Below are positions 147 to 58,712 of a stretch of 64,000 nt of DNA, one piece after another. A model generated the notes under the pieces. It was not told where the DNA came from and searched no databases. It saw nothing but the letters and a program-made list of their open reading frames with translations. The stretch is taken from the NCBI GenBank assembly GCA_044868145.1, contig JBIOWE010000006.1, forward strand, positions 14,558 through 78,557, given 5' to 3'. Made by a program: the position numbers and the translations under genes. The stretch's first letter is position 1; each line of letters starts with the position of its first letter. This stretch comes from Patescibacteria group bacterium. Lineage in GTDB: Bacteria; Patescibacteriota; Patescibacteriia; UBA10025; JBIOWE01.

Positions 147-407
147 TTAATGGTTAGACGAAAGGTACTGTCGTAACTGTTTTTTGAGAAATCTATGGCC
201 TGCGCCACTTTTTAGAAAGCGTTCTCTGCCTTTCGCGTCTTGCTTATGTAAATAACACTCTGAATATATGACGCGTAAATTCTTTCTGTTTTTTGTGGAA
301 ATGACATGTTTTGTTTGATGTTGCTCGATTCGCAGTTTGAGATTTGACGAGTACCCGATGTACCACTTTTTCTGTTCATCTTCTAAGAGATAGACCGTAT
401 AAAACAT
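147..407 (-). CDS. GIY-YIG nuclease family small protein (UPF0213/YhbQ-like)
   Basis: N-terminal FYTVYLL...WYIGYSSNLKLRIEQH GIY-YIG motif. The protein is about 86 aa. It is one of five related GIY-YIG modules in the window. Confidence 0.7.
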   Translation of the reverse strand: MFYTVYLLEDEQKKWYIGYSSNLKLRIEQHQTKHVISTKNRKNLRVIYSECYLHKQDAKGRERFLKSGAGHRFLKKQLRQYLSSNH

Positions 408-47553: not shown

Positions 47554-47799
47554 GTGTACTATCTCTACATTTTAAAATGTGCTGATGGGACACTGTATAC
47601 GGGTATTGCGGTCGATTTGGTAAGAAGAGTGCATGACCATAATCATTCAGAACTCGGGGCGAAGTATACGAAGGGGAGGCGGCCGGTCAAGCTGATTTAC
47701 TCGAAAAAGTTTCGCAATCGCTCGGCCGCTTCCAAGGTGGAAGCACGCGTCAAAAAACTGTCGCACAAGGAAAAGCTGAAGATGGTGAGGCAGAGGTGA
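47554..47799 (+). CDS. GIY-YIG nuclease family small protein
   Basis: MYYLYILKCADGTLYTGIAVDLVRRVHDHN. GTG start. Confidence 0.7.
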   Translation: MYYLYILKCADGTLYTGIAVDLVRRVHDHNHSELGAKYTKGRRPVKLIYSKKFRNRSAASKVEARVKKLSHKEKLKMVRQR

Positions 47800-48991: not shown

Positions 48992-49489
48992 ATGAACGAC
49001 ATCACCCCCAACCTCTGGTACGACTCGCAAGCCAAAGAAGCGGCCGAGTTTTACGTCAAAGTTTTTCAAGGCGCGCCTGGTGCTGATCCAATGAAGTCGA
49101 AAGTGAAGACCGTTACGCACTACCCGAAGTCAACAGAAAAAGTTTCCGGTAAACCGGCTGGCAGCGTCTTGACCGTCTCGTTTGAACTGAATGGTCAGGA
49201 ATTTTTGGCTCTCAACGCCGGCCCAGCGTTCAAGTTTAACGAGGCCGTTTCGTTCATCATCAACTGCGACGATCAGGAGCAGATTGACTATTACTGGTCG
49301 GAGCTCTCGGCCGTACCCGAATCAGAAATCTGCGGCTGGTGCAAAGATAAGTTCGGGGTGTCGTGGCAAGTGGCTCCCAAAGGGTTTGATGAAGCCGCAA
49401 AAGACCCGGTCAGGTTCGAAAAATACATGGCCGCCATTATAACGATGAAGAAGATTATCATCAAGGATCTTGAGGCGACGAAAGGCTAA
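48992..49489 (+). CDS. VOC-superfamily protein, PhnB/3-demethylubiquinone-9 3-methyltransferase-like domain
   Basis: ITPNLWYD...AEFYVKVF...ELNGQEF..LN...FKFNEAVSF...CDDQEQIDYYW pattern. Confidence 0.55.
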   Translation: MNDITPNLWYDSQAKEAAEFYVKVFQGAPGADPMKSKVKTVTHYPKSTEKVSGKPAGSVLTVSFELNGQEFLALNAGPAFKFNEAVSFIINCDDQEQIDYYWSELSAVPESEICGWCKDKFGVSWQVAPKGFDEAAKDPVRFEKYMAAIITMKKIIIKDLEATKG

Positions 49490-49495
49490 TCCACC

Positions 49496-50395
49496 ATGCG
49501 CAACATTATCACCACCACCTTCCTCACCCTCGACGGCGTCTACCAAGCCCCCGGTGGTCCCGATGAAGACAAGTCGGGCGGCTTTCAGTACGGCGGCTGG
49601 CAATTTGGTAAGTTTCAAGACGAATTAACGGGAAAAATTTTAAGTGGCTGGTTCGCTGCGCCGTTTGAACTTCTCCTCGGCCGAATCACGTATGACATCT
49701 TTGCTGCTTTTTGGCCAACCGCGAAAACTGATCCTGAAGTCGCTGTGCCGTTTAACGCCACAAAGAAATATGTTGTTTCACATGACCTGGGCTTCAAAGC
49801 GGCTTGGAACAACTCCGTTGTTGTGTCCGGAGATGTGGTCACGGAAATCAAAAAGCTGAAAGCGATGGACGGCCCGGATCTGTGGGTGTGGGGGAGTGGC
49901 AACCTGATCCAGACGCTCTTGAAAGCCAACCTGATTGATCGGATGCACATCTGGACACACCCGGTCACGATTGGATCAGGCAAGCGATTGTTTGCCGACC
50001 TGCCTGCGCCGCGGCCGAATATTTTTTACGTATATGTAATACTTTGCGATGACGATTCAATGTATATCGGCCAAACCGAAGATATTCCAAAACGTTGGTT
50101 TGAACATAACGTGGGAAGGGCTGCTGAACACACAAAACGACACAAACCACTTGAAATCATTCACTATGAAGAGTTTATTTCTCGAGAAGCTGCGGTAAAG
50201 CGCGAGCAAGATTTAAAGACAGGGTTTGGCCGAAAATGGCTAAAACACGAGTGGCAAGCCGGCCGGACGCGGCAGGCTGGTGGCACACAACCCGCGTTAT
50301 GGAAACTCGTGGACTCAAAAGTTTCTACCACCGGGGTCATTATTACCACCTACGAATTCAACGGGCCGCTGAAACCGGGGGCGGTGCCGACCTAA
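49496..50395 (+). CDS. RibD_C/dihydrofolate-reductase-like (YwjB family) protein carrying an in-frame GIY-YIG module insertion
   Basis: N-terminal part LTLDGVYQ...LLGRITYDIFAAFWPT...VWGSGNLIQTLLKANLIDRMHIWTHPVTIGSGKRLF, then FYVYVILCDDDSMYIGQTEDIPKRWFEHN (GIY-YIG). The DHFR-like C-terminus resumes at PALWKLVDSKVSTTGVIITTYEF. Confidence 0.6.
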   Translation: MRNIITTTFLTLDGVYQAPGGPDEDKSGGFQYGGWQFGKFQDELTGKILSGWFAAPFELLLGRITYDIFAAFWPTAKTDPEVAVPFNATKKYVVSHDLGFKAAWNNSVVVSGDVVTEIKKLKAMDGPDLWVWGSGNLIQTLLKANLIDRMHIWTHPVTIGSGKRLFADLPAPRPNIFYVYVILCDDDSMYIGQTEDIPKRWFEHNVGRAAEHTKRHKPLEIIHYEEFISREAAVKREQDLKTGFGRKWLKHEWQAGRTRQAGGTQPALWKLVDSKVSTTGVIITTYEFNGPLKPGAVPT

Positions 50396-50530
50396 ATGGT
50401 ATCGAGTGAAACGAAGCTGAAAGCTCCTCACCCCCAATAGCCGCCTTCATCATCTTCGATCCCCGCATCATCAGCGTCACGATAATCAAAAACCGCCTTT
50501 CAGCGGTTTTTGTACTCCTTAAGAGATAGC

Positions 50531-50929
50531 CTACTTCTTCTTTGCTTGCAGAATACTGACGCGGTTGCCTTCGGGATCAGTGAATACTGCCCACAGGCCA
50601 ATTTGCGGAATTTCTTCCGGCTGGCTGACCACGCTTCCGCCCGCATCCGTGACCGCTTTCATGGCTGCCTGGATATCGTCGACGGAAATAACCACTGATG
50701 GCATGGGCGAGACATGTTGTGCCTTTTTGTCATAGAAGCCGCCGTTGATGGTACCGGGCGTTTTGACCATACGATTTTCGTCGGTTTCGGCGGTATGGGC
50801 AGTGACATAGCCACCGTACTCCGGCCCGGTTTTGTCCATTTTCCAACCAAAGGCTTTTTTGTAAAAGGCCGCGACGCGATCTGCGTTTTCGTAGGGCATT
50901 TCGAAATGCACGACAGGGTTGTATTTCAT
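50531..50929 (-). CDS. VOC family protein (glyoxalase/bleomycin-resistance fold)
   Basis: HFEMPYENADRVAAFYKKAFGW... plus a C-terminal paired beta-alpha-beta-beta-beta module. Confidence 0.7.
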   Translation of the reverse strand: MKYNPVVHFEMPYENADRVAAFYKKAFGWKMDKTGPEYGGYVTAHTAETDENRMVKTPGTINGGFYDKKAQHVSPMPSVVISVDDIQAAMKAVTDAGGSVVSQPEEIPQIGLWAVFTDPEGNRVSILQAKKK

Positions 50930-51294: not shown

Positions 51295-51615
51295 TCCAGA
51301 CGAAAACTGTTAAGACGGAATGCACCAAAAGCCGAGATTATCCTTTGGCAATGCTTGAAGAATCAACAGCTGGGTCATAAATTCCGCCGTCAGTACAGTA
51401 TCGGCGGATATGTTGTTGATTTTTATTGCCCACAGAAGAGATTTGTCATTGAAGTTGACGGGCCAACACATTTTTCTCGGGGCGTACGGGACTATGATGC
51501 AACTCGCCAGCTATTCTTTGAATCGCTTGGCATGAGGGTCTTACGCGTGACGAACGACGATGTGTATGAGAACGTTCGGGGTGTCGTGGAAGCTATTCTA
51601 CGTTTATTGAAGTAA
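51295..51615 (+). CDS. DUF559/Vsr-like endonuclease-domain small protein (non-ATG start or 5'-truncated)
   Basis: RKLLRRNAPKAEIILWQCLKNQQLGHKFRRQYSIGGYVVDFYC...VIEVDG matches the DUF559 N-terminal motif. The ORF track starts at TTG 51355, but the frame is open from 51295 with no ATG. Confidence 0.6.
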   Translation, partial: SRRKLLRRNAPKAEIILWQCLKNQQLGHKFRRQYSIGGYVVDFYCPQKRFVIEVDGPTHFSRGVRDYDATRQLFFESLGMRVLRVTNDDVYENVRGVVEAILRLLK

Positions 51616-58253: not shown

Positions 58254-58568
58254 ATGCGACGTTATTACGTCTATATCATGACAAATAAAGTTAACACGGT
58301 GCTCTATATCGGGGTTACTTCAAATTTACAGTGGCGTGTATTTGAACACAGGCATAAGCTCACTAAGGGATTTACAGCTCGGTATAATGTGAATAAGCTG
58401 GTGTATTATGAGGGGTATGAATATGTGTGGGATGCAATTAGTAGAGAAAAGCAACTCAAAAACTGGCGACGTCAATGGAAGATTGATTTGATCAATACGT
58501 CTAATCCGCGTCTCAATGACCTGGCCCGTGAATGGTATGAGGGAGATCCTGAATCAAGTTTAGGATGA
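58254..58568 (+). CDS. GIY-YIG nuclease family small protein
   Basis: YYVYIMTNKVNTVLYIGVTSNLQWRVFEH... Confidence 0.7.
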   Translation: MRRYYVYIMTNKVNTVLYIGVTSNLQWRVFEHRHKLTKGFTARYNVNKLVYYEGYEYVWDAISREKQLKNWRRQWKIDLINTSNPRLNDLAREWYEGDPESSLG

Positions 58569-58712
58569 CAATCGTTAATATTCAGGGTGACGATAATGAG
58601 GTTCAGGATGACAATACGACACAACATTTGTCATTCCGGGCTTGACCCGGAATCTCAATAACTTGGAATGCAAATGGTATGAGATGAACACATTCCATGC
58701 TACACTAATGAT

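Follow-up and report, generated by a model that had tools for sequence, protein, structure and literature searches.

How does a nuclease domain come to lie, in frame, in the middle of a small-molecule reductase? The question is raised by a 299-codon open reading frame (ORF) in a stretch of 64,000 nucleotides (nt) from a Patescibacteria group bacterium (contig JBIOWE010000006.1; this whole stretch is called the window below). An initial annotation, made from the sequence alone, had read the ORF as a RibD_C-type reductase with a GIY-YIG module inserted in frame. We conclude that the interruption is probably a translated-through mobile nuclease cassette bounded by terminal inverted repeats (TIRs), one of a family of ~282-nt elements. 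The cassette is polymorphic and horizontally mobile, and it targets GA^YG(R), where ^ marks the point of insertion.

Both parts of the fusion were recovered by Pfam. The RibD_C match covers amino acids (aa) 3-170 of the ORF (5e-18) and ends at profile position 177 of 197, and the GIY-YIG match (PF01541) covers aa 177-244, with 52.8 bits against a cut-off of 22.6 (E 4.9e-14). Beyond these two there is no Pfam domain in the 299-aa ORF at E<=1, in agreement with the earlier observation that Hint/intein blocks are missing. The insert is also more AT-rich than its surroundings, as first described, with a GC content of 0.41-0.43 in its interior versus 0.51-0.57 in the flanks. The ORF is intact, with no frameshift separating its two parts; two independent assemblies, from NCBI and Logan, yield the identical 299-aa protein, which makes an artefactual frameshift or chimera unlikely. 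The fusion is laid out as follows.

49496..50395, + strand: whole fusion ORF, a RibD_C reductase interrupted by the element, 299 aa (ORF list; Pfam RibD_C and GIY-YIG).
49496..49998, + strand: host N-terminal part, RibD_C aa 1-167 and the GA of split codon 168 (98% identical to the insert-free gene L001).
49999..50280, + strand: mobile element, 282 nt, 94 codons (gap against the empty site; TIR symmetry).
49999..50017, + strand: 5' TIR arm, CCTGCCTGCGCCGCGGCCG, encoding ..LPAPRP (identical in all four RibD_C-borne copies).
50024..50227, + strand: coding region of the GIY-YIG nuclease domain, ORF aa 177-244 (Pfam PF01541, 4.9e-14).
50261..50280, + strand: 3' TIR arm, GGCCGGACGCGGCAGGCTGG, encoding ..GRTRQAG (family alignment; co-variation of the arms).
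50281..50395, + strand: host C-terminal part, beginning with the T of the split GA^T (Asp) codon, then GTQPALWKLVDSK... to the stop (aligned to the C-terminus of insert-free orthologues).
Empty RibD_C site: TTTGCCGATGGCACA; reconstructed codons …TTT GCC GAT GGC ACA….
Joined arms in their host context: GCCGA-CCTGCCTGCGCCGCGGCCG-loop-CGGCCGGACGCGGCAGGCAGG-TGGC.
Predicted junction-spanning peptides of the 299-aa fusion: …RLFADLPAPRPN… and …TRQAGGTQPALWK….

The reductase overwhelmingly occurs without the insert. A whole-protein search returned thousands of GIY-YIG-free RibD_C orthologues of ~200-205 aa which, where named, are listed as 'dihydrofolate reductase family protein' of Patescibacteria or Parcubacteria. 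One of these, P0004 (205 aa, gene L001), is ~98% identical, and the nucleotide alignment of L001 with the window gene shows 22 differences in 618 nt and a clean 282-nt gap at the insert. The pre-insertion peptide was reconstructed as F-A-D-G-T, which matches the A[D/E]G of 53 of 63 orthologues. At conserved positions the interrupted host carries four rare substitutions relative to the empty orthologue (P98L, A284T, P288F and A289N). Twelve of the 22 differences from L001 fall no more than 92 nt downstream of the insert (50325..50375), where six consecutive bases, TTCAAC versus CCAGCA, turn the conserved YEPAG into YEFNG; this cluster may mark a small conversion tract, or else a relaxation of constraint or a compensatory response to the insert.

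Four RibD_C proteins, including that of the window, carry the module, and the DNA ends of the element are identical in all of them. In P0005 it occupies the same site as in the window, after …GKRLFA-D, and in P0002 it lies ~70 residues further upstream, after …YVVSH. In P0003 (L003 5001..5735) the module is preceded by …SGD and followed by the site used in the window, and ~55 host residues are missing; this looks like the structure left by recombination between two copies in one gene, and its product is probably a dead reductase. Among the carriers the element is 74-87% identical in amino acids, versus 47-79% for the hosts. The three RibD_C insertion sites all lie between secondary-structure elements of an AlphaFold model whose host part is acceptable, at medium quality; to that extent the model bears out the earlier placement of the insert in a surface loop.

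The module is found far beyond reductases. An exhaustive HMMER search with the 94-aa insert against 1.84 billion protein cluster representatives gave 7064 matches, of which 367 reach E<=1e-10. In the best 150 of the 7064, residues 1-94 almost always align internally, the matched proteins being 100-1101 aa long; a few of these proteins hold two copies of the element. When the element was excised with a hidden Markov model and the host parts were compared, the remainders fell into 33 unrelated clusters, the largest being HsdS (96 of 138). Pfam confirmed HsdS, HsdR, ArgRS, TrmD, trigger factor, QueC, TatD, MGMT, MsrB and a DUF1156 methylase as hosts; an HsdM host (L046) comes from a Syntrophaceae metagenome-assembled genome, and the ArgRS host, from a metagenome-assembled genome of Candidatus Taylorbacteria, is annotated plainly as arginine--tRNA ligase. 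Some of these hosts (ArgRS, TrmD) are usually single-copy, essential housekeeping genes. Insertions also interrupt conserved motifs, namely HLGHVFxD|GP in MsrB, PCHRVVRSD|G in MGMT and DPND|EPAS in HsdS.

At the DNA level, a tblastn-based scan of metagenome contigs confirmed 338 copies. The best 80 of these 338 loci were retrieved, and 76 distinct copies entered the statistics on termini. There were no copies in viral contigs and none in PLSDB plasmids. A contig scan with the 18-nt 5' arm was uninformative because this GC-rich pattern matches high-GC genomes by chance: chance matches in such genomes made up most of the result, with two true copies (L046 and L063) among the matches listed.

In every one of the 80 loci the element's frame continues without a stop for at least 19 codons to either side (medians 186 and 199), and in none is there a stop within 5 codons of either element end. 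The length of the element is a multiple of three in essentially all copies. The element has neither a start nor a stop codon and lacks a promoter of its own, no start codon is conserved among the first codons of the family consensus, and only one of its six frames, the coding frame (+1, element-based), is free of stops. The nuclease can, therefore, be translated only by read-through from the host gene, and the element persists only where the host frame is kept. This sets the family apart from free-standing UPF0213 proteins, which are ~80-110 aa long and have their own start and stop, whereas all 80 copies are embedded in longer frames. The nearest free-standing relatives are ~82 aa long and ~52% identical, and lack the terminal LPAPRP/RQAG segments.

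Where exactly does the element begin and end? The initial annotation had placed an insert of ~87 aa at 50020-50290 and had assigned LPAPRP and GRTRQAG to the host; the element in fact spans 94 codons, 49999..50280, and both peptides belong to it. The insertion splits a host codon between its second and third bases (GA^T in the window). The base ahead of codon 1 is C in 72 of the 76 copies, and the final base of codon 94 is variable. With the boundary shifted by one base, a perfect 9-bp TIR, CCTGCCTGC…GCAGGCAGG, appears in 61/76 copies, compared with only ~1/9 matching TIR bases at the codon-aligned boundary. Since the one-base shift gives both TIR symmetry and a natural mix of host codons (GAC 32, GAT 21 and GAA/GAG 6 among the 76 copies), we set the element at 49999..50280. 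No target-site duplication was seen when the filled site was set against the empty one; the split codon ends in C, T or A, as host codons would be expected to. The flanks share a preference for G at -3 (68/76), A at -2 (62/76) and, after the split codon, G at +1 (61/76) followed by G or A, so that the target common to the different hosts is GA^YG(R).

The termini are conserved as DNA. Four-fold degenerate third positions in codons 1-4 (CTG CCT GCG CCG) and 89-93 (CGG NCG CGG CAG GCA) carry 1.6-2.0 bits, versus ~0.1 bit at the third positions of invariant Gly, Thr and Pro codons of the interior (76 distinct copies). Because four-fold sites are conserved at the ends, the terminal peptides LPAPRP and RTRQAG are by-products of conserved DNA; the element termini are cis-acting DNA selected at the nucleotide level.

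The two ends are, moreover, coupled. The arms extend past the 9-bp core with a 2-nt offset, and the variable base of the 5' arm equals its 3' partner in 62/76 copies, versus 26.6 expected if the two were independent. Clade structure does not explain this co-variation, since interior identity is 0.63 within and 0.61 between the classes. In a divergent HsdS subfamily (L208) the two arms have changed in concert to CCACAACCG, and the peptide ends of this subfamily accordingly read LPAPQP…/…GRLWHAG. These observations show that both ends are functionally coupled. When joined, the arms of family copies form DNA hairpins with folding energies of -17 to -21 kcal/mol (z -2.7 to -4.7), the value for the window's copy being -20.7 kcal/mol (z -2.9). 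A perfect 11-nt inverted repeat inside the element (50067-77/50223-33) was considered as well and set aside: its wobble positions are not conserved in the family, and we take it to be a by-product of the YIGQT and GFGRK codons.

Between these ends the element appears, from its sequence, to encode a single-domain GIY-YIG nuclease of the UPF0213/Slx1-like branch. The nearest solved structures, as PDB sequence matches, are the UPF0213 proteins 1ywl (EF2693, 4.3e-10) and 1zg2 (BH0048, 9e-9); the Slx1 structure 4xlg matches only at 0.61. NCBIfam assigned no subfamily to the nuclease, and neither Pfam nor NCBIfam found a DNA-binding domain attached to it. Residues Y12, Y22, G24, R32, H36 and E69 are invariant in an alignment of 22 sequences with the window's copy as row one; the same motif residues are near-invariant across the 76 DNA copies, and the window's copy has all residues that are invariant in the family. 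We take the Tyr of GIY, the Tyr of YIG, the Arg, the His and the metal-binding Glu to have the catalytic roles generally associated with the fold. In contrast to the ends, interior codons are conserved at positions 1 and 2 and free at position 3, so that the nuclease is under purifying selection at the protein level. GIY-YIG is the sole domain of the element, which thus has none of the known transposase classes (DDE, HUH, serine, tyrosine or Cas1).

To estimate the age of insertions relative to their hosts, we measured third-base identity at codons with identical amino acids. For a pair of SNF2-family helicase genes (L156/L157) it is 0.98 in the element versus 0.58-0.66 in the host flanks, and for three further pairs it is 0.82-0.87 versus 0.48-0.60. 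The interior of the window's copy gives 0.75-0.86 against the copies in P0002 and P0003, whose host genes give 0.45-0.53 in the same comparison; in the case of P0002 the entry was at a different site of the same gene family. Identity falls within one 60-nt interval of the element ends, and there are no co-converted flanks. The identity contrast and the sharp edges together indicate that the element entered already-diverged alleles with precise boundaries.

The ends of the element also occur without the nuclease. In the flanks of the 80 loci we found 14 termini-only palindromes of 20-66 nt, for example CCTGCCTGCGCCGCG-TAC-GTCGCGGCAGGCAGG. Their length is a multiple of three in 9/14 cases, and 11/14 lie inside long ORFs. 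Miniature units are also visible in several proteins (P0124, P0129, P0147 and P0191), as peptides such as LPAPPSEATRQAG or LPAPGFARQAG. By analogy, the full element and the arm-only palindromes would stand to each other as an autonomous transposon stands to miniature inverted-repeat transposable elements. The family thus resembles a DNA transposon in its conserved TIRs, its copies at many unrelated sites and its short end-retaining derivatives, and departs from one in the missing target-site duplication. The first description of the insert as a selfish GIY-YIG element that had landed in frame is borne out by its recurrence in unrelated genes, its inverted-repeat ends, its miniatures and its being younger than the host alleles.

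Some loci bear on the history of individual insertions. In L192 (2298..4600), one long ORF of ~2.3 kb contains a full element and four or five arm-only palindromes, one of them nested, and is a local hotspot. The HsdS genes L195 and L197 are 100% identical upstream of and through the element and ~40% identical right after its 3' end; here a recombination breakpoint (an exchange of target-recognition domains) coincides with the 3' end of the element. Insert-free orthologues that read A-G-G at the site, P0004 (L001) and P0007 (L206), both have TTT GCA GGY GG, in which GCAGG equals the last five bases of the element, as expected after a deletion between the upstream Ala GC and the GC of codon 93. 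Of the 22 differences between the window gene and L001, two lie at junction positions -3 and -1 (P about 0.02). It is suggestive only, but these A-G-G orthologues would fit the footprint of a microhomology-mediated deletion of a former insertion. Finally, a decayed 5' arm (TTTACCTGC) or the lack of an RQAG end is seen in L209, L195, L197, L199 and many 535-560-aa proteins (CTYKRVGG|LP.P…); these HsdS-like sub-lineages may be immobilised or domesticated copies.

A number of points weigh against a transposon-like cassette. Co-variation of the arms is equally expected if one protein binds both ends as duplex, and does not by itself prove a hairpin. The window's own 3' core (50272..50280) has one mismatch to the consensus GCAGGCAGG, a T at 50278; the 5' arm is present once in the window, which thus holds a single copy of the element, and there are no miniature derivatives within the window. 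Among 78 copies, no near-identical ones were found at unrelated sites: the recent events are all same-site, recent ectopic transposition is not demonstrated, and only host diversity speaks for spread to new genes. Peptide patterns, one of them spanning codons 2-11, served as seeds for the locus search, and many of the best 80 of 338 copies share homologous host sites, so that the conservation counts are partly pseudo-replicated. The insert was modelled with a pLDDT of 35-50, on a shallow alignment in that region, and its standing as a tolerated independent domain is a presumption; this part of the AlphaFold model was accordingly kept out of fold searches and of the geometry of the termini. The activity of the nuclease, its substrate and the pathway of movement are all inferred. 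Since GIY-YIG enzymes act on DNA by hydrolysis, with no covalent intermediate, they cannot join strands unaided.

Could the insert be a classical homing endonuclease gene that travels without an intron or intein? Such an enzyme would make a double-strand break in the empty allele and be copied in by recombinational repair, the inverted repeats being incidental. The recent transfers that we detected, all of them same-site between diverged alleles (four pairs), are what homing would produce, and the element sits at conserved motifs (MsrB, MGMT, HsdS), as homing elements often do. However, it encodes a bare ~90-aa catalytic domain without the DNA-binding domain of I-TevI-type enzymes, and its hosts, more than 30 unrelated genes, have in common just GA^YG(R) rather than a long specific recognition site. 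Identity drops sharply at the boundaries, co-converted flanks being absent, and homing requires neither ends selected at the nucleotide level nor co-variation of the arms, nor does it account for termini-only derivatives. We regard homing as doubtful.

The insert might instead be removed before or during protein synthesis, either by RNA excision via the terminal stem or by ribosomal bypassing, with translation of the nuclease a minority event. The paired arms can bring the host flanks together, some of the hosts are housekeeping genes and some of the sites lie in conserved motifs. GC-rich hairpin inserts are bypassed in translation in T4 gene 60 and in the mitochondrial 'byp' elements. Rfam, however, gave no family, intron or ribozyme match beyond noise in 49400..50600, and 282 nt leaves no space for a ribozyme; every copy has a frame that runs on across both junctions, a continuity that group I or II introns do not require. 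The whole insert folds as RNA no more stably than shuffled sequences do (z -1.1), only its terminal stem being significant, and we know of no bacterial pathway for cutting out and rejoining mRNA at a stem of this kind. Neither excision nor bypass needs a length in multiples of three or open junctions in 80/80 loci. Purifying selection acts on the nuclease at the protein level and, as the nuclease lacks a start codon, it must be reached by read-through from the host frame. RNA-level removal or ribosomal bypass is, thus, quite unlikely.

A third alternative is an adaptive domain fusion, in which the nuclease was recruited because it is useful to its host, for instance to restriction-modification subunits, and is no longer mobile. 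Most cluster representatives are HsdS, HsdM, HsdR or otherwise DNA-acting proteins, with 96/138 hosts in the HsdS cluster alone, and the sub-lineages with decayed 5' arms or a missing 3' end could be fixed or domesticated. Yet the host in the window is a small-molecule reductase, and ArgRS, TrmD, trigger factor, QueC and MsrB need no DNA nuclease. A 98%-identical orthologue does without the insert, and protein function cannot explain nucleotide-conserved ends or miniatures. As an account of the family, adaptive fusion is very improbable. An assembly or sequencing artefact, in the form of a chimeric contig or a missed frameshift between two genes, can be dismissed even though the source contig is metagenome-assembled, given the identical product of two independent assemblies, the 338 further metagenome copies with the same architecture and the clean boundaries against the empty site.

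If the insert is, as we favour, a mobile cassette translated through with its host, how might it move? The host ORF stays unbroken, and the host protein would carry the nuclease as an internal domain through read-through translation. The nuclease would be the mobility enzyme and, by analogy with the Ssn nucleases described below, might recognise the hairpin that the paired arms can make in single-stranded DNA (ssDNA). A cut at the base of this hairpin would fall exactly on the host/element junction, with the conserved GA just before it; cleavage of ssDNA at this position is favoured because the stem base coincides with that junction. Ligation or repair by the host would then complete both excision and entry at GA^YG(R) sites. 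Host proteins would tolerate the extra domain because selection leaves only those insertions that lie in permissive loops. More tentatively, the family could be a new class of prokaryotic transposable element: a ~280-bp hairpin with an Ssn-like GIY-YIG gene in its loop, restricted to host frames after losing its own start and stop signals, moving as ssDNA by a hydrolytic counterpart of the IS200/IS605 'peel and paste' that host ligase or repair completes, and spawning in-frame palindromes comparable to those of Rickettsia. We consider this possible, and short of probable.

By analogy, the closest known counterparts would be the Ssn/SRM hairpin-nuclease system and the Rickettsia palindromic elements (RPEs). 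In the Ssn system, a small GIY-YIG protein of one domain is encoded by a gene with hairpin repeats of 20-50 nt on either side (Chenal et al., Nat Commun 2025, PMC11893778). The enzyme binds this hairpin in ssDNA; its cut lies directly upstream, and cleavage is governed by the bases that adjoin the hairpin on that side. The authors noted an arrangement like that of insertion sequences (IS), drawing a parallel with IS200/IS605 and REP/RAYT (PMC11893778). The element has in common with Ssn a single GIY-YIG domain without a separate DNA-binding domain, inverted-repeat or hairpin brackets and short scattered hairpin copies, and the position of the Ssn cut, upstream of the hairpin, corresponds to the host/element junction.

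There are also differences from Ssn. Ssn genes are free-standing with their own start and stop, whereas the element has neither and always lies in frame inside a host gene. An Ssn gene has a whole hairpin on each side, whereas each end of the element is half of one hairpin, with the nuclease ORF in the 'loop'. The repeats themselves are unrelated, the element's CCTGCCTGCGCCGCG… contrasting with …GTCATTCCCGCG… in the NTS/SRM of Ssn. Internal to host proteins of 100-1101 aa, the element falls outside the single-domain size range of Ssn (<=150 aa), and its nuclease is nearer to UPF0213 than to the window's own Ssn-like ORF (30% identity), the proxy through which it was set beside the Ssn family (CDD cd10448). 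The Ssn repeats were described as essentially extragenic, with 2% inside genes in N. meningitidis, and the family tree left out proteins longer than 150 aa (PMC11893778); for both reasons that study would have missed an in-gene lifestyle.

The miniatures are reminiscent of RPEs, which are likewise short palindromic DNA inside genes that keeps the frame and is translated as an extra peptide. To our knowledge, RPEs encode nothing and have no known dedicated enzyme, whereas the present family has an autonomous-looking full-length form that carries a nuclease; the two show no sequence relationship. Inteins with homing endonucleases are also in frame, often in conserved motifs and housekeeping genes, are co-translated, encode a nuclease and spread to the same site. 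The element differs from them in having no Hint domain and no Cys/Ser/Thr…His-Asn junctions, in being far smaller (94 aa) and in having DNA inverted repeats; its first residues are Leu-Pro and its last Ala-Gly, with a Gly directly after it. Since both the Hint domain and the splicing junction residues are missing, protein splicing is excluded, and the extra domain presumably stays in the mature host protein. Elements of the IS200/IS605 and REP/RAYT (REPtron) type share with the family hairpin ends, a short specific site, no target duplication and many non-autonomous palindromes. In contrast to the hydrolytic GIY-YIG enzyme inside host ORFs, however, they use HUH/Y1 transposases with covalent intermediates and are free-standing and largely extragenic.

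One precedent comes close. The HsdR protein MCA0838 of Methylococcus capsulatus has an Slx1-like GIY-YIG insertion that is missing from an 80%-identical homologue (Dunin-Horkawicz et al. 2006, PMC1564403). The insertion was judged recent, possibly parasitic and a unique case, and no termini, target, family or miniatures were described (PMC1564403). As far as its description allows a comparison, it resembles our element in placing a GIY-YIG domain inside a subunit of a Type I restriction-modification system. Searches of the open-access literature turned up nothing on the family or on its ends, target and miniatures, the 2006 case being the sole precedent found. Among GIY-YIG elements associated with hairpins or TIRs, the family is a widespread variant, apparently uncharacterised, whose home is in frame within genes.

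The window contains three free-standing GIY-YIG genes as well, rather than the four first reported.

147..407, - strand: free-standing GIY-YIG ORF, 86 aa, a paralogue of the insert.
47554..47799, + strand: free-standing GIY-YIG ORF, 81 aa, the insert's closest relative in the window (33% identity).
58254..58568, + strand: free-standing GIY-YIG ORF, Ssn-like, 104 aa (30% identity to the insert).

The earlier claim of homology between these ORFs and the insert holds at the level of family paralogues and no closer; with ~30-33% identity and no shared DNA similarity, they were rejected as its source. No convincing flanking hairpin repeats were found around the ORFs at 147..407 and 47554..47799. 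About 60 nt downstream of the Ssn-like ORF, at 58628..58658, lies the hairpin TTGTCATTCCGGG-cttga-CCCGGAATCTCAA, which closely resembles the Neisseria NTS/SRM motif (CGTCATTCCCGCG MAV GCGGGAATCYRG) recognised by Ssn. The NTS-like repeat occurs once in the window, where none is expected by chance, and this ORF with its downstream hairpin is probably a genuine Ssn/SRM pair. Another nuclease type shows up nearby and among the hosts: a free-standing DUF559 ORF lies at 51355..51615 (+ strand), 1 kb downstream of the studied gene, and the 1101-aa DUF1156 methylase P0159 contains, besides its GIY-YIG cassette, an in-frame DUF559 (Vsr-like endonuclease) segment between direct peptide repeats, …SPSPSDMERGPGGE…. 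This segment may be a second kind of in-frame nuclease cassette.

If our reading is true, bacteria, and especially the small-genome Patescibacteria, harbour a widespread selfish element hidden in unbroken genes as central as those for ArgRS, TrmD and trigger factor, and a nuclease that is expressed only as a passenger domain of its host protein. Under current annotation such genes wrongly go by the name of fusions or of 'GIY-YIG nuclease family protein'. The sites of insertion would amount to a natural map of the protein positions that tolerate a 94-aa domain, and the nucleases with their arm pairs are a possible new source of sequence- or structure-specific cutters of ssDNA. The family would also link the Ssn hairpin-specific nucleases to an actual mobile lifestyle and provide an enzyme-bearing model for in-frame palindromic repeats such as the RPEs. 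If the nuclease proved to be a hairpin-directed transposition enzyme, these elements would form a new class of prokaryotic mobile element; on our reading they would also represent a third route, besides inteins and introns, by which nuclease-encoding parasites enter housekeeping genes.

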